Origin: a virus | Taxonomy: Duplodnaviria; Caudoviricetes | DNA length: 29,598 bases | Virus record (IMG/VR): IMGVR_UViG_3300020045_005943 | Location: 1 to 29,598 of that record | Reading direction: 5' to 3' (one strand) | Translations under genes and position numbers: made by a program | The notes under the pieces: generated by a model | The model's database searches: none | Told to the model about the DNA's origin: nothing | Seen by the model: the letters and a program-made list of their open reading frames with translations, nothing else | Part shown: positions 2,163 through 16,988 of the stretch, in pieces | Layout: each line of letters begins with the position of its first letter | Position numbering within the stretch: the stretch's first letter is position 1

Positions 2163-2496
2163 CGAATTTGAAATTATGGTTATCCCGTATGTAGTCGGCC
2201 ATAACCTGATCGACCCTACTCATTTGCTCATATTTTGCCCGGTTGCCAATTTCCAACGCTTGCTCTCTAATTCGCATTAGGCGCAATGATTTTACTAAGG
2301 GGTCTTTCCATAGGGCTATTGTCTCAACTGCTTTCCTGGTGGCTTGTAGGGGCATTGTCGTACGTCCTAGCTCTTTCATTGCCCGTTCCGTGGGTATGTC
2401 GGAAAGAATTCTCATAACATCTTCAAACGGATCAACCGAGGGAACCAGGGGCGCTGGTTCCGATGGTGTCAAGTTCAGGTTGTTTTCTGTTTGCAT
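2155..2496 (-). CDS. Hypothetical protein in the replication module
   Basis: 113-aa ORF overlapping both neighbours in operon fashion. Confidence 0.6.
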   Translation of the reverse strand: MQTENNLNLTPSEPAPLVPSVDPFEDVMRILSDIPTERAMKELGRTTMPLQATRKAVETIALWKDPLVKSLRLMRIREQALEIGNRAKYEQMSRVDQVMADYIRDNHNFKFDD

Positions 2497-3226
2497 CTTT
2501 TAAGGTTTTTGCGATACGTTCCGCCTTCCGTTCAGGGTCAGCATCTTTCATTTTTTCTATCCAATCCGCTTCCATGAATGACATTGTAAGCGTTTCTATC
2601 TTGGTTGGAAATACCAGCCGGTTCATTTCGTAGTGGGTTTTCATGGCCTTTAATTGGGTGATTATGTTCTGATGCCCGGCATCAATCCATTGTTTGACCA
2701 TGAAAAAAACATCCATTGTGTTTGGGTTCGTCCTTTTTAAGAGGGTATTTATTTCTGAGGCTAAAGCGTGTATTTCTGCTTGAATTTCTTTTTTAAGGTT
2801 ATCTGGTTTATGGTTTATGGTTAATGGTTTATCTATACTACTATTGCTTTCCCCTATGGTTTGGGATTGCTTTCCCGCATGGGCAAGGATTGCTTTCCCT
2901 AATGCTTTCCCGTTTTTCGGAAAAGCATTTATGAGGCTAATTATGTTAGATGAGTATTGATTCTTTGATTTTTCAACTAAAACAAAGAAACCCCATTCAA
3001 CCAAATCATTGAAGTATCTGATGTATGTTTCGTGTTTTTTTATGCCTATTGCATCCATAACCATCTGAGTTGGGAAACCAAATTTTGTCTTCCATCCTAA
3101 CCTGTTGCAGTGTTCAATAGCAAAAAAATAAATAGCTGAATGATTAGGGCTAATTAATTCTGGATTCTCAAATGAGAAATCAAACCATCCCCTACTTAAT
3201 TCGTATCCGTTTAATTTATCGTTCAT
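2432..3226 (-). CDS. Phage replication initiator / replisome organiser
   Basis: N-terminal winged-helix-like region (GYELSRGWFDF...HSAIYFFAIEHCNRLGW), repetitive linker containing iterons, upstream of the helicase. ATG at 3226 preferred. Confidence 0.7.
   Translation of the reverse strand: MNDKLNGYELSRGWFDFSFENPELISPNHSAIYFFAIEHCNRLGWKTKFGFPTQMVMDAIGIKKHETYIRYFNDLVEWGFFVLVEKSKNQYSSNIISLINAFPKNGKALGKAILAHAGKQSQTIGESNSSIDKPLTINHKPDNLKKEIQAEIHALASEINTLLKRTNPNTMDVFFMVKQWIDAGHQNIITQLKAMKTHYEMNRLVFPTKIETLTMSFMEADWIEKMKDADPERKAERIAKTLKDANRKQPELDTIGTSAPGSLG
2804..2911. repeat. Iteron-like repeats, putative replication origin
   Basis: TGCTTTCCC at 2845, 2868, 2891 and 2903, plus four tandem TGGTT(T/A)A units at 2804-2831, all inside the initiator gene. 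Confidence 0.65.
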
Positions 3227-3276
3227 AAAAAAAGGCAACCACCATCAACGCAAGTGCTAATCACAAATCAAAACCA

Positions 3277-7622: not shown

Positions 7623-7708
7623 GGAACACTGCACTAAAACAAAGCCTGAAAGTTTAGGGATTGGCGCCTCACCTGAACAGGAGCAAGATTATTCTACTCA
7701 TTACAATT

Positions 7709-8095
7709 ATGACAATCGAAGACTTAGTAAAAGAACAAATTGAACAACTTGACATAAGAGAGTTAGTTCAAGGTGAAATCAGGAAACTAATTTCTGATGA
7801 GGTGCAACGCGAAATCGTTAAAACCACAAAAGAGGAAATTCAACGAGTGATTAAAAATGAAGTTGAAATTGCTCTATCAAAAGGCGTTAACACCGATGAC
7901 GGATGGGGGAAACGGGAAAGTTATACTTCATTTGAAGAGATGTTCAAAAAGTTTTTCAAGGAGGCTCTTAACAACCAATACGAGGTTAAGAAGACTATTG
8001 AAAACCACGTTAAGGACACAACGAAAAAACTTGTTGACGAAAAAACAAAAGACATCGTTGAAGCCCTCAAAAAATCTCTTGGCGCGGGTGGCTGA
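7709..8095 (+). CDS. Hypothetical helical protein (array remnant)
   Basis: ATG at 7709. The gene ends in GCGCGGGTGGCTGA followed by an orphan AT-rich right arm. Confidence 0.7.
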   Translation: MTIEDLVKEQIEQLDIRELVQGEIRKLISDEVQREIVKTTKEEIQRVIKNEVEIALSKGVNTDDGWGKRESYTSFEEMFKKFFKEALNNQYEVKKTIENHVKDTTKKLVDEKTKDIVEALKKSLGAGG

Positions 8096-8163
8096 TTTTA
8101 AATTAAAAATTTGCACGGTGAACAGTTGAAGCAGCTACTCAAAACCTCACTACGAAGCACTAA

Positions 8164-8675
8164 AGGCTTTTTTATTTTTTAGCGTGGATTTGGAAATGTG
8201 AATTATTATGTGGATCTTTGTTACACAAAACATTAAATAATACACTTATGAAAGTAGCTTATGAATGGTGTTACGAGGTAACCGATGAACATGGGGATAT
8301 TATTGATAGCAACTTTGCTGATAAATTATCCGACTTTTCAAAAAATGAAGATGGCGAACTATTACTTGTTAGAAATGAGGGCGATGAAATTAATGGAGTT
8401 GAGGACAGGCAATGGGCTTACGTGAAGGATGGTAAATTACCCTTTAAGTTTTCAGATGCCAGAAACGTTGAGATTGATATTGATGTTCCGAAACGATTCT
8501 TTAAAGAACTTGAAAACTACCTGAAATGAAAATACACCAAACATTCAGGCTTGATTCTGATTTAATTGAAGTAGCCAAAAGTTACGCTGAAAAAGAAAAC
8601 CGTACTATTTCCAATGTTTATGAAACTGCTGTTATTGAGTATTTAAAAGCGCGTGGGCAAAAAATAAAAAAGCCT
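8164..8675. repeat. Inner inverted repeat pair 1 (17 bp, perfect)
   Basis: AGGCTTTTTTATTTTTT 8164-8180 / AAAAAATAAAAAAGCCT 8659-8675. Confidence 0.9.
8248..8529 (+). CDS. Hypothetical acidic protein
   Basis: MKVAYEWCYE...; ATG at 8248 follows an A-rich leader. Confidence 0.7.
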   Translation: MKVAYEWCYEVTDEHGDIIDSNFADKLSDFSKNEDGELLLVRNEGDEINGVEDRQWAYVKDGKLPFKFSDARNVEIDIDVPKRFFKELENYLK

Positions 8676-8690
8676 CTCACCAAACGTTAA
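8526..8690 (+). CDS. Ribbon-helix-helix (CopG/Arc-like) protein, 54 aa
   Basis: MKIHQTFRLDSDLIEVAKSYAEKENRTISNVYETAVIEYL fits the RHH pattern; ATGA overlap. Not in the ORF track. Confidence 0.7.
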   Translation: MKIHQTFRLDSDLIEVAKSYAEKENRTISNVYETAVIEYLKARGQKIKKPLTKR

Positions 8691-8694
8691 TATG

Positions 8695-9069
8695 AAATTT
8701 TAAAACAAAAAATAGCGATGGCACATGGAATGAAAATTAAGGATGATGAAAAAGCGGCTTTTATAAAAATGAATGGTGGAATATTATGGTTCATTGAAAA
8801 TAAAAGCACCGGACTTTGGTGGCATCACACCCTTGACTTAAAGGACAATCTCCCTTGCACCTGTAGAAAATGTTACCCAACCGGCTATCCATTTAAAAAA
8901 TACAAAGACGGATGGACAAATGATGTTCAAAAAGCTGATGCCTATCTTACAAAGGAACAGGCAGAACATGGAATATTCTTTTACTATACCAATGAACCAG
9001 AAACAAATTTAATAGCCACCGAACATGAATTTATACCAAGCGCGTAGGGGATTTTTTGTTTTAAAATTT
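8695..9069. repeat. Inner inverted repeat pair 2 (19 bp, perfect)
   Basis: AAATTTTAAAACAAAAAAT 8695-8713 / ATTTTTTGTTTTAAAATTT 9051-9069. Confidence 0.9.
8718..9047 (+). CDS. Hypothetical protein
   Basis: 109 aa, exactly filling inverted repeat pair 2. Confidence 0.75.
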   Translation: MAHGMKIKDDEKAAFIKMNGGILWFIENKSTGLWWHHTLDLKDNLPCTCRKCYPTGYPFKKYKDGWTNDVQKADAYLTKEQAEHGIFFYYTNEPETNLIATEHEFIPSA

Positions 9070-9088
9070 TATGCGCACGAACTACGCT

Positions 9089-9274
9089 AACGGGAGGTGC
9101 TTATGCAGTGCGATTAATTAAACTAAAAATTAAAATATGAAACACAAATTCACACTAACGCAAACAATTGAGTTGATAAGGATGAACGCTCATAGCGGCA
9201 CAAAAGAAAATTTAGAAGCGATTATCGACCTGACATACGAAGCAGAAAAATTAGCATTACATAAGCACAATGTT
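9089..9274 (+). repeat. attC-like hairpin A1, with a start codon in its loop
   Basis: TAAC-G...GTGCTTATGCAGTGC 9097-9111 / GCATTACATAAGCAC 9254-9268...T-GTTA. Confidence 0.75.
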
Positions 9275-9358
9275 ATGCCATCGTTGCCCGAATTAGACGC
9301 AGACTCTAACTGTGACCACAAAATTTTATATGAAAGACTTATTGAAAAAAGCGTTTGA
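9137..9358 (+). CDS. Hypothetical protein reading through the GTT core
   Basis: ...LALHKHNV|MPSLP...; GTT at 9272 is the Val codon. Confidence 0.55.
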   Translation: MKHKFTLTQTIELIRMNAHSGTKENLEAIIDLTYEAEKLALHKHNVMPSLPELDADSNCDHKILYERLIEKSV

Positions 9359-9557
9359 GGCTGGCGAAAGAAAGGCACACGCTCAAGATAGCACTGAGGG
9401 AATTTTAGGATTCGATACCGAACCTGATTTTGAAACATGGTACGAGCAATCGCAACAACCTATTGTTAGCGGCAGTGGCGACTTAATCCAATTCGCTATG
9501 TATTTAACGGGGCATGATGAAGACACCATTAAACAGATGTACCGTGATTGGCACTGA
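9330..9557 (+). CDS. Hypothetical protein reading through the GTT core
   Basis: MKDLLKKAFEAG...QQPIV|SGSGDL...; GTT at 9465 is the Val codon. Confidence 0.65.
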   Translation: MKDLLKKAFEAGERKAHAQDSTEGILGFDTEPDFETWYEQSQQPIVSGSGDLIQFAMYLTGHDEDTIKQMYRDWH

Positions 9558-9625
9558 GCCATCGCAGGAATGTTGCAAAGAATATATGGACAAACACAAA
9601 AAACTATCCAGCGGCAATGCGCCAT

Positions 9626-9695
9626 AACGTGCAAGTGCTTGTGTCCGGTTTGCTCCAGACACAAGACAAAGGCAAACTGGCACAAGCACGGTGTT
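9626..9695 (+). repeat. attC-like hairpin A2 (short, empty)
   Basis: AAC-gtgcaa-GTGCTTGTG(T)CCGGTTTGC-loop-GCAAACTGGCACAAGCAC-ggt-GTT, with one extrahelical T. Confidence 0.85.
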
Positions 9696-10212
9696 ATAAG
9701 CTGGCCGGGATGAACCGATGAACGAACTTAAAATAGATGAACTGAATTTTTAAACTTAACCAAGAAGCGCGGGCTTTTGAAACACCGAACGACATGAACG
9801 AAGAAGAAATTAAAAACGCTGTGATTGAATCAGTAACCATTGATATGGGTGACCGTGGATTGCTAACCGCTTGGCTACATTTGAACTATGGCGGAAGCGG
9901 CCAGGGCTTTGGCGGATTCTCACTTTACCTACCAAAATCATATACTCATTTTACAGAGAAGGGAGATTTTGCCGGACACTTTATTTTCAGATGCATGGAG
10001 ATTGCGGGCGTTGAGAAATGGGAACAGATGAAAGGCAAAACCATAAGGGTAAAATCAAGCCATAGTAAAGTGGAAGCCATCGGGCATATTGTGAAAGACG
10101 ACTGGTTCAATCCTTCACAGGACTTCACCCGTATGAGTGCGGTGGGTGGTTAAGTTTAAAAATTCTCCGCAGACACTGACCTATGAAACACGTCCCCCGG
10201 CTTGCTTATAAC
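9693..10212. repeat. GTT...AAC module with nested inner repeat pair 3
   Basis: GTTATAAGCTGGCCGGG 9693-9709 / CCCGGCTTGCTTATAAC 10196-10212; inner perfect 19 bp pair at 9744-9762 / 10147-10165. Confidence 0.9.
9794..10153 (+). CDS. Hypothetical protein
   Basis: 119 aa (KNAVIESV...GQGFGG...IGHIVKDDWFNP), filling inner pair 3. Confidence 0.8.
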   Translation: MNEEEIKNAVIESVTIDMGDRGLLTAWLHLNYGGSGQGFGGFSLYLPKSYTHFTEKGDFAGHFIFRCMEIAGVEKWEQMKGKTIRVKSSHSKVEAIGHIVKDDWFNPSQDFTRMSAVGG

Positions 10213-10333
10213 GAATCGGTGCTTGTTTAGTGCCGTGATTAACAGATTGAACTAACTTAAAAACACAAATATGACAACAACTAAAAAACCATCCACGAAG
10301 CGCAAAGCTAAGGCATTGAACAAGCACAATGTT
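10210..10333 (+). repeat. attC-like hairpin A3, with a start codon in its loop
   Basis: GTGCTTGTTTAGTGCC 10219-10234 / GGCATTGAACAAGCAC 10312-10327, between AAC and GTT. Confidence 0.85.
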
Positions 10334-10516
10334 AGCCACAGTGCCGACACACCGAAAGTATATATAGGGGGTGAAGAAGTTACCGACAAAGACACAAAAG
10401 CAATACTTCTGATACATTATGCAATGACCATATCAACACCCCGCATGAGAAAGGCAAACTTGGAATTTGTGTTGAGCCGTCCAAAGTACAAGTTGAAAGT
10501 CACAGAATCTTATTAG
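10271..10516 (+). CDS. Hypothetical protein spanning hairpin A3 and the next module
   Basis: MTTTKK...LNKHNV|SHSA.... The stop falls just before the right arm. Module arms: GTTAGCCACAGTGCC 10331-10345 / GGCATTGTGGCTAAC 10518-10532. Confidence 0.7.
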   Translation: MTTTKKPSTKRKAKALNKHNVSHSADTPKVYIGGEEVTDKDTKAILLIHYAMTISTPRMRKANLEFVLSRPKYKLKVTESY

Positions 10517-10587
10517 AGGCATTGTGGCTAACGCATTGTGGGTTTGGTGATGTGAATAATGACTATGCCGGGAAAAGTTCTGAGGAG

Positions 10588-10719
10588 ATGAAGGAAGATA
10601 TAAAGGTTCTGCTATCCTTCACAAAACCAGAATCAATTACTGCCATGATTCACTCACTCATTGAATTGCAAAAAGCTGTGTTCGATGGTCACTTAGAAGT
10701 TCCCGAGCGGGTCGGCTGA
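10588..10719 (+). CDS. Probable 3' gene fragment or short hypothetical protein
   Basis: Frame is open from 10522; ends in GAGCGGGTCGGCTGA plus an orphan right arm. Confidence 0.4.
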   Translation: MKEDIKVLLSFTKPESITAMIHSLIELQKAVFDGHLEVPERVG

Positions 10720-10872
10720 TTTAGTTTAAAAATTGTTTCGCACGAACTGAACTACGAAGAGAATGACAGAGGCTGAATTTATCCAATTTGCCGAAAACAG
10801 AATATCAGGTAAAGAGTGGCATAACACTATTGATTCAGGCTATTCTCTGTTTAAGTCAAAAAAAGAAAAACT

Positions 10873-11091
10873 ATGACACAACAATATATAACCCATCTTA
10901 ACGAATGCATTAAGGCAAATAAAGCGCATTCTATTGACCCATTTGAAGTATTCGAAAGAATGAAAAAATCAGCAATCGAAGCATATATTAAAACACGTAA
11001 TGAAGAAAATGAAGAAGGGAACATGGGGAGGCAAGCGAATAAGCACGAAGCCAAAGAAAGAACCAACCAAAGTTATCCGCGTACCCATTAG
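10873..11091 (+). CDS. Hypothetical protein
   Basis: 72-aa ORF whose 3' half overlaps the 11000-11131 gene. Confidence 0.45.
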   Translation: MTQQYITHLNECIKANKAHSIDPFEVFERMKKSAIEAYIKTRNEENEEGNMGRQANKHEAKERTNQSYPRTH

Positions 11092-11131
11092 CAAGTTACC
11101 GGCTGTACTCAAGGCTCTTGGTAAAGTTTAG
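11000..11131 (+). CDS. Small basic putative DNA-binding protein, copy 1 (43 aa)
   Basis: MKKMKKGTWGGKRISTKPKKEPTKVIRVPISKLPAVLKALGKV; paralog at 15259 differs largely by synonymous or conservative changes. Confidence 0.7.
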   Translation: MKKMKKGTWGGKRISTKPKKEPTKVIRVPISKLPAVLKALGKV

Positions 11132-11159
11132 GATGTGTCCAACTTAATAAAATAACAAC

Positions 11160-11297
11160 ATGAAAAAGAAACTTTCAAAAACCACAAAATCAAGGCCATT
11201 AACTAAACACAATGTTAGCGGTATACCAAATATGTATCCCACAGAAGCCCGCTTTGACAAAAGAAAGAATAGCGTTCAAGTTATCACTAAACGGTAA
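11160..11297 (+). CDS. 45-aa peptide reading through the GTT core
   Basis: MKKELSKTTKSRPLTKHNV|SGIPN...; the stop lies within the right arm GGTAATTGCCGCTAAC. Confidence 0.5.
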   Translation: MKKKLSKTTKSRPLTKHNVSGIPNMYPTEARFDKRKNSVQVITKR

Positions 11298-11415
11298 TTG
11301 CCGCTAACGTTTGCCGCTTTATGCAGTGCCTACACGAACTTAACTATGAAATGCGAACCTTTTTTTGAATTAAATTTTTTAAGCGTGGATTTTTGAATTT
11401 AAAACTTTAACAACT

Positions 11416-12381
11416 ATGAAAAAGTATCCGAGTATAGAACAATTTAGAAATGTGATTAGAAGCGTAAAAGCTATTCACGACTATCAAGGCAAGGACGAGG
11501 AAGGTAAAGCCATTTACCAACACAAGGATAATTACCCAACCCTGACCTTTAGAGGCACAGTAAAACTTCATGGGACGAATGCCAGTGCAGTAAAATACTC
11601 AGATGGCAGAATTGAGTTCCAATCAAGGGAAAGAGTTTTATCATTGGAAGATGATAACGCTGGATTCATGGCTGCAATGGTTGGTAAAGACTTGAACATC
11701 TTGTTTAACCAGTTTTCACCAAAAAACTATGTTGCTATTTATGGCGAATGGTGTGGTGGAAATATTCAAAAAGGAATTGCCATAAACGGACTTGGTAAAA
11801 TGTTCGTAATTTTTGGAGTGATGGTTGATGATGTTTGGGTTGACTTACCGAGTGACCTACACTCAAATGAAAATAGCATCTACAATATTTTACAGTTCCC
11901 AACTTATGAAGTTGAAATAGACTTCAATCACCCTGAGTTAGTGCAGAATAAAATAATTGAAATGACTATTTCCGTTGAGGAGTGCTGCCCGGTTGGGAAA
12001 TTCTTTAATAAGGAAGGCGTGGGTGAGGGTATAGTTTTTACTTGCCTGAAAAATCAAGAACTGAAATTTAAATCTAAGGGTGAGAAACATTCCGCATCGA
12101 AGGTAAAAACACTTAATCCGGTTGATGTTGAGGCTATAGCAAGTATCAACGAATTTGTTGAATTAGCGGTTACTGAAAATAGATTGGAACAAGGAATTTC
12201 CTTTTTCAGGGAAAACAATATTGAGGTGGAAGCTAAAAATACTGGGCAGTTTTTAGGCTGGGTTGTAAAAGATGTCTTGAAAGAAGAGAAAGACACCTTA
12301 GAAGCAAGTGGATTGGATGAGAAAAAAGTGAAAAACGCAATAGTAACAAAAGCTCGAATCTGGTTTCTGAATTGCATTTAA
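11416..12381 (+). CDS. RNA ligase, Rnl2-like nucleotidyltransferase
   Basis: Motif I KLHGTN, QSR, III YGEWCG, IIIa FVIF, IV EGIV, V KFKSK, and a C-terminal VTENRLEQ...DVLKEE domain. Confidence 0.85.
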   Translation: MKKYPSIEQFRNVIRSVKAIHDYQGKDEEGKAIYQHKDNYPTLTFRGTVKLHGTNASAVKYSDGRIEFQSRERVLSLEDDNAGFMAAMVGKDLNILFNQFSPKNYVAIYGEWCGGNIQKGIAINGLGKMFVIFGVMVDDVWVDLPSDLHSNENSIYNILQFPTYEVEIDFNHPELVQNKIIEMTISVEECCPVGKFFNKEGVGEGIVFTCLKNQELKFKSKGEKHSASKVKTLNPVDVEAIASINEFVELAVTENRLEQGISFFRENNIEVEAKNTGQFLGWVVKDVLKEEKDTLEASGLDEKKVKNAIVTKARIWFLNCI

Positions 12382-12420
12382 TGTGCTGCGGAATAACAGA
12401 TAAACTTTGATTGAAACACA

Positions 12421-12841
12421 AAAAATAAATTTAAACTTTTTAGAGCGATGGCAATTAACGTAAATGAATTTAGAAAAGGTAACTATGCAAACTACTCCTA
12501 TCAAGGAACGGATGTGATTTTTTACGGTTACAACTATTCCGATGGATGCTTTACCGACTTTTCATCAATACCAATTGAGCCGGAAGAACTTGACCCAATA
12601 CCATTAACTGAAAAATTGTTAATACAATTGGGATTTATTAAAAAGTGGGATGATTATAAAGGTGAGGTTGAACAATTTGAGAAGGGTTTGATTACTTGGT
12701 CAAATGGCCAGTTTAGGATTGGAACTTATTGGGTATTTGATTTTGAAATACATCACCTTCACCAATTACAAAATCTTTACTTCTCAATTACAGGAACCGA
12801 ACTTGTATTGAGCGGGGAGGAAAAAGTTTAAATTTATTTTT
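12421..12841. repeat. Inner inverted repeat pair 4 (21 bp, perfect)
   Basis: AAAAATAAATTTAAACTTTTT 12421-12441 / AAAAAGTTTAAATTTATTTTT 12821-12841. Confidence 0.9.
12448..12831 (+). CDS. Hypothetical phage protein
   Basis: 127 aa (PIPLTEKLLIQLGF...HLHQLQNLYFSITGTEL), filling pair 4. Confidence 0.8.
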   Translation: MAINVNEFRKGNYANYSYQGTDVIFYGYNYSDGCFTDFSSIPIEPEELDPIPLTEKLLIQLGFIKKWDDYKGEVEQFEKGLITWSNGQFRIGTYWVFDFEIHHLHQLQNLYFSITGTELVLSGEEKV

Positions 12842-12895
12842 CCTTCAATGACCTGCGCCCTGTCCGATGGAATACGAACTAAGCAGCTTGCATAC

Positions 12896-12969
12896 AACGC
12901 TCTCTGTGTTTGTGAGCGGTTTTGCTCCACACGAAAGACTACGGCAAAACTGGCACAAACACAGTTGTT
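12896..12969 (+). repeat. attC-like hairpin A6 (short, empty)
   Basis: AAC-gctct-CTGTGTTTGTG(A)GCGGTTTTGC / GCAAAACTGGCACAAACACAG-tt-GTT. Confidence 0.85.
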
Positions 12970-13059
12970 AGCAGCAGTAGCTTCCACTGAACTTAATTAA
13001 ATGCACAAGAAAAAAGAAAAAATTTTAGCAGGGATTTTGAAACACTAAACTATAAAATT

Positions 13060-13401
13060 ATGGATGGAAACTTAGCAATGGCAAACTCAATTGTAAATCA
13101 AACTGAGGAACAAGCCAACACACCGAACTACCCAAAAGGAACGACCAAGGAACAATGGGACAGATACGCGATTGACCTGAAAGCCCATGAGGAACGAGTG
13201 GCACGAGAGAAACCAATTGAGCCAGACCATCTTAAATACAAAGAACAAAAATATAAAGGTGAATGGACTTTTATACCGGGGTATTTAGAGCGGTATTCAA
13301 ATGATTGGGACGCTTACCAAAAGAAACTATCTGAATGGGAAATGATGTGTTCGTGTGATGCCCCCAACAAGCCCGGTTACTACAGAGCAAACAACGATTG
13401 A
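13060..13401 (+). CDS. Hypothetical protein
   Basis: 113 aa, inside pair 5. Confidence 0.75.
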   Translation: MDGNLAMANSIVNQTEEQANTPNYPKGTTKEQWDRYAIDLKAHEERVAREKPIEPDHLKYKEQKYKGEWTFIPGYLERYSNDWDAYQKKLSEWEMMCSCDAPNKPGYYRANND

Positions 13402-13402
13402 T

Positions 13403-13612
13403 ATGCCAAGAGTAGAATTATCTGAAGCCGATTTAGAATGGGTAACCGAAGCCATTGGTGAGGGCTATACCAAGAAACAATTAGCGAAACAATATGGTGT
13501 ATCGGTGCCGACTCTTAATAGATTACTAAAGGGCGAATCTATCATTTGCGGTAAATGCAAGATGCTTGGGCCGTTAGCTCCGTGTGATGAATGTGGGTTA
13601 AAACTAATTTGA
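13403..13612 (+). CDS. HTH protein with a C-terminal CxxC/CxxC motif
   Basis: YTKKQLAKQYGVSVPTLNRLL HTH; CGKC...CDEC. Confidence 0.7.
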   Translation: MPRVELSEADLEWVTEAIGEGYTKKQLAKQYGVSVPTLNRLLKGESIICGKCKMLGPLAPCDECGLKLI

Positions 13613-13695
13613 ACTCAATGCGCGGTGGCAAAATTTTTTCTTTTTTCTCGTTCAAGTTTGCACGAACTCAGCTACGAAGAAAGGCTATTGCTGCT

Positions 13696-13764
13696 AACGG
13701 GCGAATGTTTATGACGGTTTGCTCCACACGGAAGACAAAGGCAAACTGGCATAAACATGGTGTT
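13696..13764 (+). repeat. attC-like hairpin A7 (short, empty)
   Basis: AAC-gggcga-ATGTTTATGACGGTTTGC / GCAAACTGGCATAAACAT-ggt-GTT; a relative of A2 and A6 with compensatory changes. Confidence 0.85.
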
Positions 13765-13847
13765 ATCTGCTGGCCGGTTACACTGATAAACTTAACTATG
13801 AAACACACAAAAATTTTGAATTAAAATGCCGAAGGGCGGATGTATTT

Positions 13848-14054
13848 ATGACACTAATAGAAGCATGGTATCGAAGACATTTTTGTGAGACTACCAGTTG
13901 GTATGCAGGTAATCCAGCACTTGGAACTGAGTTGATGGACATACCTTCACAGAACATGAAGTACATCTACGTTGGAAAAGGAAAGATTTGGATTAAAAAG
14001 GACGTAAGTAAACTCATGCGCAAATTGAGAGAATCAAAAAGACCAATATTCTGA
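13848..14054 (+). CDS. Hypothetical protein
   Basis: 68 aa, coupled (TGATG) to the next gene. Confidence 0.65.
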   Translation: MTLIEAWYRRHFCETTSWYAGNPALGTELMDIPSQNMKYIYVGKGKIWIKKDVSKLMRKLRESKRPIF

Positions 14055-14410
14055 TGACTACAGGTTATGAATTATTAGCCGAACAACTACACGGTAGAAT
14101 TAGGGCGGCAAAAAAGGAATACGTTATATGTGCAGCTAATTGGTATAAAGTGCCGACTTCAAAAAGCGAACACCTACCACAAAATATTGGCTACGGTATT
14201 GTTGTTTGCGGCAGGAGGCACCACAATATTTTTGCCACGGTAGCTAAAATAAGTGAGGACTTTATGCATGATACTAAATCAATGTGTGAGCAAGGGTTTA
14301 TGACTTCAAAAGATAGATGGGTTGACAGAAAAGAAGCTGGGCAAATAGCCTTTGAAGCTGGGCAAACGACTGAATTAAAAACATGTCTTTTTTCGGAAGA
14401 TTTATACTAA
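14054..14410 (+). CDS. Hypothetical phage protein
   Basis: 118 aa (VCGRRH...QGFMTSKDRWVDRKEA...LFSEDLY). Confidence 0.8.
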   Translation: MTTGYELLAEQLHGRIRAAKKEYVICAANWYKVPTSKSEHLPQNIGYGIVVCGRRHHNIFATVAKISEDFMHDTKSMCEQGFMTSKDRWVDRKEAGQIAFEAGQTTELKTCLFSEDLY

Positions 14411-14503
14411 CCCGCATTGCGAATGGGGCTGGGGCATTTTAATTCAAAATTTTTGCTCACTGAATGAACCTATGAAATGCGCTCTGTCCACCGGCTTGCA
14501 GAT

Positions 14504-14592
14504 AACGACCAAGTGTTTAAAGCGTTTGGCGCTTCAAAGCTACGCCCCGTCCACGGAGGGCAAAACCGCCAAATGATTTTAAACACGGTGTT
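14504..14592 (+). repeat. attC-like hairpin A8 (short, empty)
   Basis: AAC-gaccaa-GTGTTTAAAGCGTTTGGCG / CGCCAAATGATTTTAAACAC-ggt-GTT. Confidence 0.8.
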
Positions 14593-14780
14593 ATGCACAG
14601 TGGCAACGTGGGAACTTTTTATGAGCAATAGGGGCTTGCGCAGCTTGCCTCTATTGCGGTGAAACCCGCTTTTTACGCTGATTTGAGGGGTCTAAAAAAT
14701 AATTCAAATATTTATCTTGAAAGTGTAACAAGTTCAAGTTATTAGCGTATATTTACATAACAATTAAAACAAACAACGCC

Positions 14781-14912
14781 ATGACAACCTCAAAAAAATC
14801 AACCAAAAAAGAGACAGTAAAAATCTTCGGACAGACTGTAACCGTAGGAACTAAGGAACATGCCCGGTTAGTTTATCAACAAAAACTGTTTGCTCAAAAT
14901 GGTGACTACTAA
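14781..14912 (+). CDS. Small hypothetical protein (43 aa)
   Basis: MTTSKKSTKKETVKIFGQ..., after an A-rich leader and a promoter-like TATATTTA (14748-14755). Confidence 0.55.
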   Translation: MTTSKKSTKKETVKIFGQTVTVGTKEHARLVYQQKLFAQNGDY

Positions 14913-15045
14913 GCTAACGATAAAAGAAATAGGAAGGCTTTCAAAACGGAGGCTTTCCAAATACATTGAGGATATTACACAAACTCCAATTTGTGCTGAT
15001 GTTAATTACTGCAAAGCCCTGATTGAATTATGGATGCAGAAGTAA
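14899..15045 (+). CDS. Small hypothetical protein (48 aa)
   Basis: MVTTKLTIKEIGRLSKRRL...; overlaps the upstream stop region. Confidence 0.45.
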   Translation: MVTTKLTIKEIGRLSKRRLSKYIEDITQTPICADVNYCKALIELWMQK

Positions 15046-15055
15046 TCCATTTAAG

Positions 15056-15304
15056 ATGAAAATCCAACACGCTAGGAGACGTCCACAGGTGCTAGGGTGG
15101 TGCCGCTCGTTAGTGCGGCACCTTTTTTCAAAAATCATTGCAGTCAGATGGTGGAATAATCTTCCAAGACTAACCCAAATTTCATATAATTATAATGTGT
15201 TTGGAGCGCCCGATTTAGGCGAAACCGATGAACTAAGCAAAAAAGATATTATAAAAATATGGGAACTAAAAAGAAAAAAGGAACATGGGGAGGAAAGCGA
15301 GTAA
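15056..15304 (+). CDS. Hypothetical protein
   Basis: ATG at 15056 in the frame of track ORF 15023-15304; contains a terminator-like hairpin. Confidence 0.45.
   Translation: MKIQHARRRPQVLGWCRSLVRHLFSKIIAVRWWNNLPRLTQISYNYNVFGAPDLGETDELSKKDIIKIWELKRKKEHGEESE
15099..15128 (+). terminator. Intrinsic terminator-like hairpin
   Basis: GGTGCCGC-tcgttagt-GCGGCACC followed by T6. Confidence 0.55.
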
Positions 15305-15393
15305 GCACGAAACCAAAGAAGGAGCCGACTAAAGTCATGCGGATACCGATTAGCAAGATTGGGGTTATACTCAAGGCTCTTGGAAAGGCTTAG
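15259..15393 (+). CDS. Small basic putative DNA-binding protein, copy 2 (44 aa)
   Basis: MGTKKKKGTWGGKRVSTKPKKEPTKVMRIPISKIGVILKALGKA. Confidence 0.7.
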   Translation: MGTKKKKGTWGGKRVSTKPKKEPTKVMRIPISKIGVILKALGKA

Positions 15394-15457
15394 GAATTGA
15401 GCGCGGCACGTGTGGCCTTTGCAAGTGCCTTGCTACGCTCTGTCCGCCATTGTGCAT

Positions 15458-16047
15458 AACGCTTGGTGTGTTTATACAGTGCGATTATTAACAGATGAAC
15501 TTTCAACGAAGTAGTAACAAATTTTAATTTAAAAAGCAGGGAGGGGCTTACCCAACATTTAAAGTTATGAAACAATCCAACTACACATTTGCGGAAGGAT
15601 TCTATGGAACTCCGGCAATTGCAGCCAAAGCAAGAGGCGCTAAAATGAAAGCCTTTGATTGGGATAAGGCAGCCCAAATAATAAAAGAAAGGTTTGCCCA
15701 ACATCCCGATTTAAGTGCAGAGGCAGGACTTCAAGGAGACTGGAATTATACAGGTGGGGTAATCTTTGAAAACGGCAAACCGACCAAAGAAAACTATACA
15801 TACCTATCATCAAATTGGGCTGCACCAACTTTGATTTTGAGCTGGGATGGTAATGAACAAGAGGAGCTTGAATGTTCAACTGAGGCCAATGAGAGATTTG
15901 ACTCAGATAGCAAATGGGATGAAACCTCTTTGGGTATTCTTGGGATAACTCTGTAATTCATCGTGCGGCTGGTGATTTTTAAATTAAAATTTGCACGGTG
16001 AACTATCCACAACGCACTGAACTAAGCATTGTATAAACACACTTGTT
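15458..16047 (+). repeat. attC-like hairpin A9 with a whole gene in its loop (inner pair 7)
   Basis: GTGTGTTTATACAGTGC 15466-15482 / GCATTGTATAAACACAC 16026-16042; inner perfect 18 bp pair at 15518-15535 / 15976-15993. Confidence 0.85.
15567..15956 (+). CDS. Hypothetical protein
   Basis: 129 aa (FDWDKAAQIIKE...AGLQGDWNYTGG...SSNWAAP). Confidence 0.8.
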   Translation: MKQSNYTFAEGFYGTPAIAAKARGAKMKAFDWDKAAQIIKERFAQHPDLSAEAGLQGDWNYTGGVIFENGKPTKENYTYLSSNWAAPTLILSWDGNEQEELECSTEANERFDSDSKWDETSLGILGITL

Positions 16048-16108
16048 GTATGCTGGCCGCCACCGCTTTTAAAAGGATTAGAGAGACTTCGGGCGGCTTG
16101 CATACAAC
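16045..16108. repeat. Empty GTT...AAC module next to the putative attI-like site
   Basis: GTTGTATGCTGGCCGCC 16045-16061 / GGCGGCTTGCATACAAC 16092-16108. Confidence 0.85.
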
Positions 16109-16148
16109 TATACCATTGAGAAATATTTCGTAAATCAAATTTAATCCG

Positions 16149-16160: not shown

Positions 16161-16988
16161 ATGGATACACGGACTAAATTCGAGAATTACATGGTTCTCA
16201 GAAACTTTGCGGCCAATAGCATCACAAGCTACTTATCAGTATTTGATATAGTCGTTTCTGAGGATGAAGAAATATTCAGTCGAAGCCAGGATGAAATAAT
16301 TACATACTTAGCGAAAAAGATTAAGAAGCAAAACCTAAGCGCTTCTTATGTGGCTCAGTTCGTGTCCGTGTTCAATATCGTTATTAAACAAATTTTAAAG
16401 CGAACAGATTCGATTAAGATACCAAGACCAAACAAACCTATTATACAACCAGACATATTAACTACTGAGGAAATAATCAAGATGCTTTCTTGCATAACCA
16501 ATATTAAGCATAAGGCTATAATTTGCTTAATGTACGCCACTGGAATAAGGGTTAGTGAGGTTTGTAATATGCGAATCAACGATATTGACAAGTCAACCAA
16601 CTGCATAAAAATAAGACAGGCAAAAGGAAAAAAAGATAGGGTTGCAATGTTAGACCCAAATCTATTAAACGTACTGAGGGATTACTTTGTATCGTACAAA
16701 CCAAACGTTTACCTGTTTAATGGAGCTAAAGGTGAAAAGTATTCTAGCCGGAGTATTCAAAAAATGGTAACAGATTGCGCTGCAAAAGCAGGCATTAGAA
16801 AGCACATCTCAAGCCACTCAATGCGTCATAGTTGCTTTACTCAGTTAGTAAAAGACGGAACGGATATTAGGTATATTCAAAAACTGGCCGGTCATAAGAA
16901 CATAAACACAACCGCCCGATACTTGCAAATAGCTGACATGGATATTATTGAAATGAAAAGCCCATTTTCTAATCTGAACTTGAAATGA
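16161..16988 (+). CDS. Tyrosine recombinase/integrase (XerD/IntI-like, N-terminal SAM-like domain)
   Basis: Catalytic motifs ATGIRVSE (R), AKGKKDR (K), HSMRH, LAGH and TTARY (Y); 275 aa with no arm-binding domain. Confidence 0.95.
   Translation: MDTRTKFENYMVLRNFAANSITSYLSVFDIVVSEDEEIFSRSQDEIITYLAKKIKKQNLSASYVAQFVSVFNIVIKQILKRTDSIKIPRPNKPIIQPDILTTEEIIKMLSCITNIKHKAIICLMYATGIRVSEVCNMRINDIDKSTNCIKIRQAKGKKDRVAMLDPNLLNVLRDYFVSYKPNVYLFNGAKGEKYSSRSIQKMVTDCAAKAGIRKHISSHSMRHSCFTQLVKDGTDIRYIQKLAGHKNINTTARYLQIADMDIIEMKSPFSNLNLK

Follow-up and report, generated by a model that had tools for sequence, protein, structure and literature searches.

Perfect inverted repeats as a probable inner stem of integron-like cassettes in a tailed phage

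The stretch studied here (the window) comprises positions 1 to 29,598 of virus record IMGVR_UViG_3300020045_005943 (Duplodnaviria; Caudoviricetes), a partial tailed-phage genome with helicase, YqaJ exonuclease, endolysin and tail genes. It contains a one-strand gene array at about 7700-16110, which ends 53 bases before the start of a tyrosine recombinase gene and in which seven perfect inverted repeat pairs, hereafter clamps, bracket cargo genes. The array belongs to a widespread phage cassette system. We put at about 55% the probability that the clamps are the inner stem of these integron-like cassettes, folding each of them while it is single-stranded, with a working role in single-stranded DNA (ssDNA).

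Inverted pairs in the cassette array

All seven pairs listed in a preliminary description of the window were confirmed with 0 mismatches. Their lengths are 17, 19, 19, 21, 19, 23, and 18 bp, the arms are AT-rich with 1-5 G+C each, and no other perfect inverted pair of at least 15 bp was present at any distance in the whole 29.6-kb window. In the shuffle comparison proposed in that description, pairs of at least 17 bp were far rarer by chance (mean below 0.01 per shuffle): for 8001-16100, the mean was 0.007 in 300 global dinucleotide shuffles and 0.003 in 300 that were confined to 50-base blocks and so preserved local AT richness, and the maximum was 1. A chance origin of the seven pairs was ruled out by these shuffles. 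Each pair encloses one or two open reading frames (ORFs), as had been described, with the refinement that three right arms overlap coding sequence: 8659-8675 falls within the Arc-like gene 8526-8690, and 10147-10165 and 12821-12841 overlap stop codons. Three further arms, at 8096-8112, 10720-10735, and 11360-11380, are partnerless.

The array is an alternation of two units. The attC-like site has the order AAC, spacer of 5-6 bases, stem, loop, stem, 2-3 bases, GTT; the body runs from GTT to AAC, and its two ends are mutually complementary over 15-17 bases. By setting, three clamps lie in intact bodies, one lies in a gene-holding attC-like loop, and three lie in eroded units. The left end of the array is presumably older, with its boxes lost by deletion. 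The clamps and partnerless arms are as follows.

8164-8180 / 8659-8675, + strand: clamp pair 1, 17 bp; encloses ORF 8218-8529 and the Arc-like gene; flanking att boxes lost
8695-8713 / 9051-9069, + strand: clamp pair 2, 19 bp; encloses ORF 8718-9047; 5' box lost, 3' spacer shortened
9744-9762 / 10147-10165, + strand: clamp pair 3, 19 bp; ORF 9794-10153; in body 9693-10212; 35+31 = 66 unpaired bases to the box stem
12421-12441 / 12821-12841, + strand: clamp pair 4, 21 bp; ORF 12448-12831; cassette 5' end deleted, 3' box retained at 12898
13008-13026 / 13630-13648, + strand: clamp pair 5, 19 bp; ORF 13060-13401 and an HTH gene; in body 12967-13698; 26+35 = 61 unpaired bases
13808-13830 / 14433-14455, + strand: clamp pair 6, 23 bp; ORFs 13848-14054 and 14054-14410; in body 13762-14506; 29+34 = 63 unpaired bases
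15518-15535 / 15976-15993, + strand: clamp pair 7, 18 bp; ORF 15567-15956; in the loop of attC-like site 15454-16051; 35+32 = 67 unpaired bases
8096-8112, + strand: orphan right arm after ORF 7709-8095; G-rich inner motif and usual 3' spacer
10720-10735, + strand: orphan right arm after ORF 10522-10719
11360-11380, + strand: orphan left arm, 30 bases past an attC-like left stem and before the RNA ligase gene 11416-12381; partner deleted

Sites of the attC-like form (AAC/GTT boxes, unpaired spacer, inner stem, variable loop) numbered seven in the window and 341 in 206 loci. As to the two extrahelical bases that integron attC sites have at set positions, single bulges occur in some sites; the constant feature is a G.T pair, formed at position 11 of the coding strand and found in 287 of 327 distinct end stems from the 206 loci by a search that did not require it. 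Of the two strands, the coding one gives the more stable fold in 295 of 324 attC-like units and in 229 of 275 end pairs, and genes lie on this G.T (more stable, bottom-like) strand in 124 of 132 phage bodies, with 0 opposite and 8 unclear. The final box before the recombinase is not followed by an attC stem; a TA-rich motif common to many of 55 loci comes next, and by its sequence this box is probably an attI-like site. From the layout of the array and the gene strand, the arrangement is therefore integron-like, with genes facing the recombinase. The fold of 15440-16065 shows the clamp nested in the site stem, at -82.9 kcal/mol for the coding strand vs -72.7 kcal/mol for the other. The remaining features of the array are listed below, with the strand where one was assigned.

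9085-9278: attC-like site; loop of about 133-145 bases containing the start of ORF 9137-9358
9622-9699: short attC-like site, one of a family of three in the window
10206-10337: attC-like site; 77-base loop with the start of ORF 10271-10516
10331-10532, + strand: short cassette body; self-complementary ends, no clamp
11214-11308, + strand: short cassette body; 65-base loop, no clamp; found by eye, under the script threshold
12892-12973: short attC-like site
13692-13768: short attC-like site
14500-14596: attC-like site; 35-base loop
14590-15460, + strand: cassette body of 871 bases; self-complementary ends, no clamp
15454-16051: attC-like site; loop contains an entire clamped gene
16045-16108, + strand: gene-less body of 64 bases with a 30-base loop, adjoining the attI-like site
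16102-16120: putative attI-like site, 53 bases before the recombinase start; related TA-rich motif at this place in other loci
16161-16988, + strand: tyrosine recombinase, 275 aa; catalytic residues intact, no IntI-specific insertion

The loops of the attC-like sites at 9085-9278 and 10206-10337 contain start codons and N-termini. From there the reading frames continue across right stem and box, which gives several small proteins a recurring KHNV-type motif.

Clamp position, frames and cargo across phage loci

The clamp lies at a regular depth in the cassette. In the four intact modules of the window (4/4), 61-67 unpaired bases separate it from the box stem (66, 61, 63, and 67). Across loci, where all counts include related sequences, clamps either adjoined the box stem directly (flush) or began about 45-58 bases inward of each body end; the unpaired total of the non-flush clamps was 60-79 in 52 of 72, a count that takes in one repeated frame family, vs 22% under random placement. 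For 44 distinct arms at recombinase-anchored loci, the two end distances summed to 95-101 (quartiles). Clamp position tracked the recombination box and not the start codon. A body's own ends paired perfectly over at least 12 bp in 83 of 214 cases, and swapped ends in 2 of 214. At loci fetched via the recombinase alone, clamps were present in 50 of 148 bodies (16/60 short bodies and 10/17 long ones), and the longer the cassette, the longer the clamp (rho 0.24, p 0.003, 148 bodies). The pairs had been described as a separate structural level of the cassette, and this view is supported: they sit at a fixed distance inside the boxes, were found at 0 of 74 cargo-gene homologues outside arrays and in none of 14 classical Vibrio cassettes, and differ in sequence, yet are perfect, around homologous genes.

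Both arms are bordered on their inner side by a G-rich motif, in direct orientation on the coding strand, with G making up 39-41% of the 12 inner bases. When viral loci were chosen blindly, only by five T plus the G-rich motif, a perfect downstream partner of at least 13 bp was present in 28 of 61 distinct loci, and the upstream control gave a partner in 1 of 60, a result in favour of pairing. The first mismatch beside the arms (62 arms) favoured the non-coding strand in 25, the coding strand in 13 and neither in 24; this preference, opposite to that of the box stems, is not decisive. Before the right arm, 5-7 bases of the G-rich motif could pair with C-rich bases after the arm (8649-8681, 9040-9078, 10135-10171, and 15960-16000; by eye), which would possibly put the arm in a local loop as an alternative fold.

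The arms had been called private. This is true within the window and false generally: arm families are common to other phages and reused around unrelated genes, and four window arms have look-alikes elsewhere. As had been envisaged, homologous genes carry different yet perfect arms; one 23-member gene cluster was found with six of them, and one arm was found around unrelated genes. One frame houses five unrelated DNA-modification gene families (N6/N4, D12, Dam, Mom, and EcoRI-like), whose reading frames run on into a tail that the right arm encodes. The last five residues of the 9794 protein are encoded by the G-rich motif, and all but one of 33 aligned homologues are without them. Frame and cargo therefore reassort, and the junction between them falls at the G-rich motif. 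At the cassette 3' ends of L480, L490, L491, L544, and L545, unrelated modification enzymes carry a common C-terminal tail, encoded by one frame's right arm and spacer. One form of it, ending in QKTLF, resembles the sliding-clamp binding motif QL[S/D]LF and could account for modification enzymes favouring that frame. Hybrid frames, with the left arm of one family and another family's right arm or none (L506 and L556), suggest crossovers within cassette bodies.

The clamp is not a property of the cargo gene, as homologues outside arrays are unclamped. For the 9794 family in other phages, no clamp was found at any of 66 loci, left after 12 of 78 were dropped as apparent duplicates or contig-end cuts, and the best bracketing repeat was at most 12 bp; for the 15567 family, none was found at 8 loci (best repeat at most 10 bp). 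Two cargo genes had no match in GenBank phages. In two phages of 60% G+C (L172:1498-1858 and L183), a 9794 homologue lies between 12-bp perfect GTT...AAC ends, with no AT-rich clamp, which we read as an independent capture of this gene family by another cassette lineage.

Bodies that are nearly identical differ in their neighbours, and the change falls exactly at the AAC and GTT boxes, which is indirect evidence that the recombinase excises and inserts cassettes. Transposon termini, including those of miniature inverted-repeat transposable elements (MITEs), were ruled out since the shared sequence extends past the arms to the GTT and AAC boxes. For the identical bodies L527/L538, and likewise for a chromosomal duplicate (L350), the left attC was kept and the right changed; the cassette is therefore probably the left attC plus body. 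Among 20 body pairs with at least 85% identity, which share members and are not independent, only the left attC was kept in 3, only the right in 0, both in 1, and neither in 16; in a separate comparison, neither was kept in 8 of 8 informative pairs. The attC differs on both sides even in a 99.7% identical pair (L238/L274), and pairs of this kind indicate that attC stems are exchanged often. As many short genes start inside an attC loop, stem exchange therefore fuses different N-termini to one body (L014/L289).

A 128-base direct repeat, its copies 81% identical, lies in two different cassettes (11006-11133 and 15268-15395). Outside the array, a putative replication initiator gene (2432-3238) has three iteron-like 23-base tandem copies at 2843-2911.

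Loop sizes, selection and competing explanations

Unpaired stretches cluster near 35, 70, and 140 bases. Within 274 distinct phage bodies, perfect stems of at least 11 bp had loops of 60-79 bases in 39 cases, compared to 1.4 in triplet shuffles and 1.5 in these phages' DNA outside arrays, and a second peak at 130-149 bases held 19 vs 1.2 expected. The in-gene 70-base stems fall into 38 independent clusters, with 38 of 40 located in ORFs; the clamped genes of the window have no inner stem longer than 10 bp. Loops of 332 attC-like sites, in which related sites count many times, measured 30-39 bases in 90, 60-79 in 166, and 135-144 in 10. Chromosomal bodies had 1 perfect stem with a 60-79-base loop among 54, and chromosomal attC-like sites have a loop of 61-82 bases in 25 of 27 with genes on the other strand. 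The same loop size with genes on the other strand points to DNA rather than RNA.

These sizes appear to match footprints of SSB, the protein that binds single-stranded DNA, as given by E. coli values from which a phage or host SSB may differ. SSB of E. coli has binding modes of 35, 56, and 65 bases, the last of which draws the two ends of a 70-mer together (PMC5737091), and long attC loops cut recombination by up to 4 logs under replicative conditions (PMC8946536). In the SSB control of attC hairpin folding reported by Grieb et al. 2017 (PMC5737091), SSB attaches to folded att sites, in modes of 35 and 65 bases, and is a competitor of the recombinase. There SSB melts a short hairpin; here whole-cassette loop lengths appear to match the footprints. 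No SSB gene was recognised among the 23 other ORFs of the partial genome. By hand count, the classical Vibrio attC loop (L476:34741-34867 and other Vibrio sites) is about 63 bases, near the SSB-65 footprint, and the loop rule may extend to sedentary integrons.

We propose that SSB wrapping would align the arms, each loop being sized for one SSB tetramer, so that a folded site would still be presented by long cassettes and by attC loops that contain an entire gene. On the folded coding strand, the recombinase would cut at the AAC box, and cassettes would insert at the attI-like site. New cassettes would come about when an existing frame exchanges its cargo for a phage gene, the exchange taking place at the G-rich motif within the arms.

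Evidence exists both for arms selected to pair and for arms made by the building process, and both can be true. In favour of selection, in 29 clamp comparisons of related pairs, mostly of one frame switch, there were 32 two-sided Watson-Crick changes and 5 two-sided breaks. Two compensatory synonymous changes were found in the in-gene stem of L289/L014, and in one frame family (19 rows) mean identity was 0.91 in the left arm vs 0.84 in the spacer.

Several results weigh against a working role of the clamp in folding. In the homologue comparison, one-sided changes exceeded two-sided ones (48 broken in clamps and 77 in in-gene stems), and most in-gene stems were not retained in homologues at 60-77% identity. 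No clamp was present in 98 of the 148 phage bodies, including the 871-base body of the window. The two end distances were not anticorrelated (rho -0.05, n 44), which gives no support to a constant sum of the two spacers in place of a fixed length on each side. In an equilibrium naked-DNA model of 3 cassettes, the box stem paired at 0.97-0.98 with or without the clamp. Among 56 Flavobacteriales bodies with the same G.T signature, from 20 stretches around chromosomal homologues, no clamp of at least 12 bp was found, although this search used looser thresholds and a few units may be false; the recombinase family can therefore do without the clamp.

The last two results also fit a by-product, in which the stems would be footprints of cassette building or copying, by template switching about 70 bases apart on ssDNA, with little present role. 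The stems are nearly always perfect (61/69 end clamps; 33 in-gene stems perfect vs 5 with G.T), though the att boxes are G.T-rich, and they occur inside unrelated coding sequences. At L236, the left arm alone differs from two homologues, and a two-base change completes the stem; this is one case, and for the polarity of copying in in-gene stems, usable homologues beyond one repeated family existed for 4 of 59, one of them suggestive. Reports on template switching describe it as perfecting quasi-palindromes and hairpins (PMC7202029, PMC8794818). Yet one-sided arm changes persist in several members of one frame, so that correction is not continuous, and the arm is still better kept than the adjoining spacer. 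The compensatory changes in L289/L014 also speak against little present role, and as the 70-base stems are missing from the same phages' non-array genes, the process would have to be cassette-only. On balance, we regard a mere footprint as unlikely.

Another explanation is a role in RNA: the stems would loop each gene's mRNA and so serve its processing, its stability or the control of its translation. Perfect stems that are rich in A/U and flank genes resemble RNase III stems, and the coding strand is the more stable G.T strand in nearly all bodies, with clamps confined to the arrangement in which genes lie on the G.T-containing strand. The right arms and 70-base stems, however, are mostly within coding sequence; the left arms vary by family, some being U-rich and others A-rich; an Rfam search gave no match; and both the box-tracking position of the clamp and the chromosomal attC-like sites, with the same loop size and genes on the other strand, are hard to reconcile with it. 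This makes an RNA role improbable. A second site-specific system, with arm, G-rich motif and arm as a target whose motif is duplicated by gene insertion, would explain the directly oriented motif inside both arms and the change of cargo at it, and is nevertheless very improbable, as no empty arm-motif-arm site appeared in 121 matches to the commonest arm family (18/64 parts scanned) or, by eye, among short AT-rich hairpins of 206 loci, the arm families are too divergent for one protein site, and no second recombinase or transposase was found in the window. The ssDNA inner stem is thus the reading we prefer.

Recombinase, related systems and meaning

The residues R130, K155, H219, R222, H245, and Y254 of the recombinase are invariant across 42 homologues. 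The integron integrase model TIGR02249 matched it in two stretches with 150 bits, against a cut-off of 265, and residues 180-244 of VchIntIA (2A3V) aligned to only 22 residues of the phage protein, about 43 fewer. The 275-aa enzyme thus lacks the IntI-specific insertion (alpha-I2, beta-4,5), which reads extrahelical bases (PMC3053210). Its top match in GenBank phages is in Polaribacter phage Leef_1, which bears an array of this kind, and 18 of 61 genomes from the order of G001 (Flavobacteriales) have homologues; on these grounds a Bacteroidota host is probable. A scan of viral contigs with the recombinase as a single-protein query gave no match. In another phage (L082:712-6594), several copies of a 30-37-base inverted repeat, unrelated to the clamps, lie upstream of the recombinase.

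The Flavobacteriales chromosomal arrays (G001-G058) are alike in the box stem, the G.T at position 11, the 61-82-base attC loop and a recombinase that matches over about 270 codons, the whole profile, with no IntI insertion. They are unlike the phage arrays in that the array follows the 3' end of the recombinase gene, the gene is on the opposite strand in 49 of 56 bodies, that is, on the attC top strand as in integrons, and neither a clamp nor an enrichment of in-gene 70-base stems is present.

Classical integrons, such as the Vibrio anguillarum array in phage Va_90-11-286_p16, share with the phage system a recombinase transcribed away from the array with an attI-like site adjoining, AAC...GTT boxes around an imperfect stem of which one strand folds better, and, probably, a youngest moving unit made up of a cassette with one attC (L527/L538, L350). 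They differ in the IntI insertion, in carrying genes on the attC top strand and away from attI, whereas the phage genes lie on the more stable strand, and in the inner clamp: as had been supposed for classical cassettes, none of the 14 from Vibrio has a pair longer than 8 bp. The phage end stems have 15-17 bases with a fixed G.T, compared with runs of 8-11 in Vibrio, the phage attC loops hold whole genes or gene starts, and attC stems are often exchanged on both sides of a body. As the array is integron-like in layout and lacks both the IntI insertion and the integron gene direction, we do not class it as an integron member.

Clusters of attC sites lacking integron integrases (CALINs) have been described in phages by Qi et al. 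2023 (PMC9892861). Polaribacter phage P12002L, which carries two methyltransferase genes, is among them; IntI1 recombined one of its sites, and odd site directions were remarked upon. Those clusters are similar in having attC-like sites in a Bacteroidota phage with DNA methyltransferase cargo, and differ in that a cognate recombinase, 53 bases from the last box, and an attI-like site are present here. We found no description of inner stems, loop sizes or reusable frames in main-text portions of PMC9892861 or, for phage cassettes, in the mostly open-access literature searched, supplements aside in both cases. Our scan of P12002L found few end stems and no clamp, and none of this type of end stem was found in phage TJE1. 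According to IntegronFinder 2.0, integrons are nearly absent from Bacteroidetes (PMC9024848).

Taken further, the material can be read as a Bacteroidota phage cassette factory, which we offer as a tentative and doubtful extension. Bodies and attC stems would be reshuffled separately by an IntI-like recombinase without the strand-reading insertion; modules would consist of stems and SSB-sized loops (35, 70, and 140), written even into coding sequence through templated copying of the single-stranded form; and ordinary phage genes would drop into ready-made clamped frames that supply a start or a C-terminal tail. If true, this would be a visible route of cassette creation.

To our knowledge, the origin of integron cassettes is an open question. 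In its relevant passages, PMC7923331 cites only a proposed intron route. With ordinary phage genes in reusable frames that have a defined junction, one route of cassette making becomes testable. A folding plan encoded in the genome, with protein-footprint loops reaching into coding sequence, would if true be a new constraint on mobile DNA. The window unites the recombinase, an attI-like site and intact clamped cassettes, and the cultured Polaribacter phage Leef_1 has the same kind of array, which makes these proposals testable.

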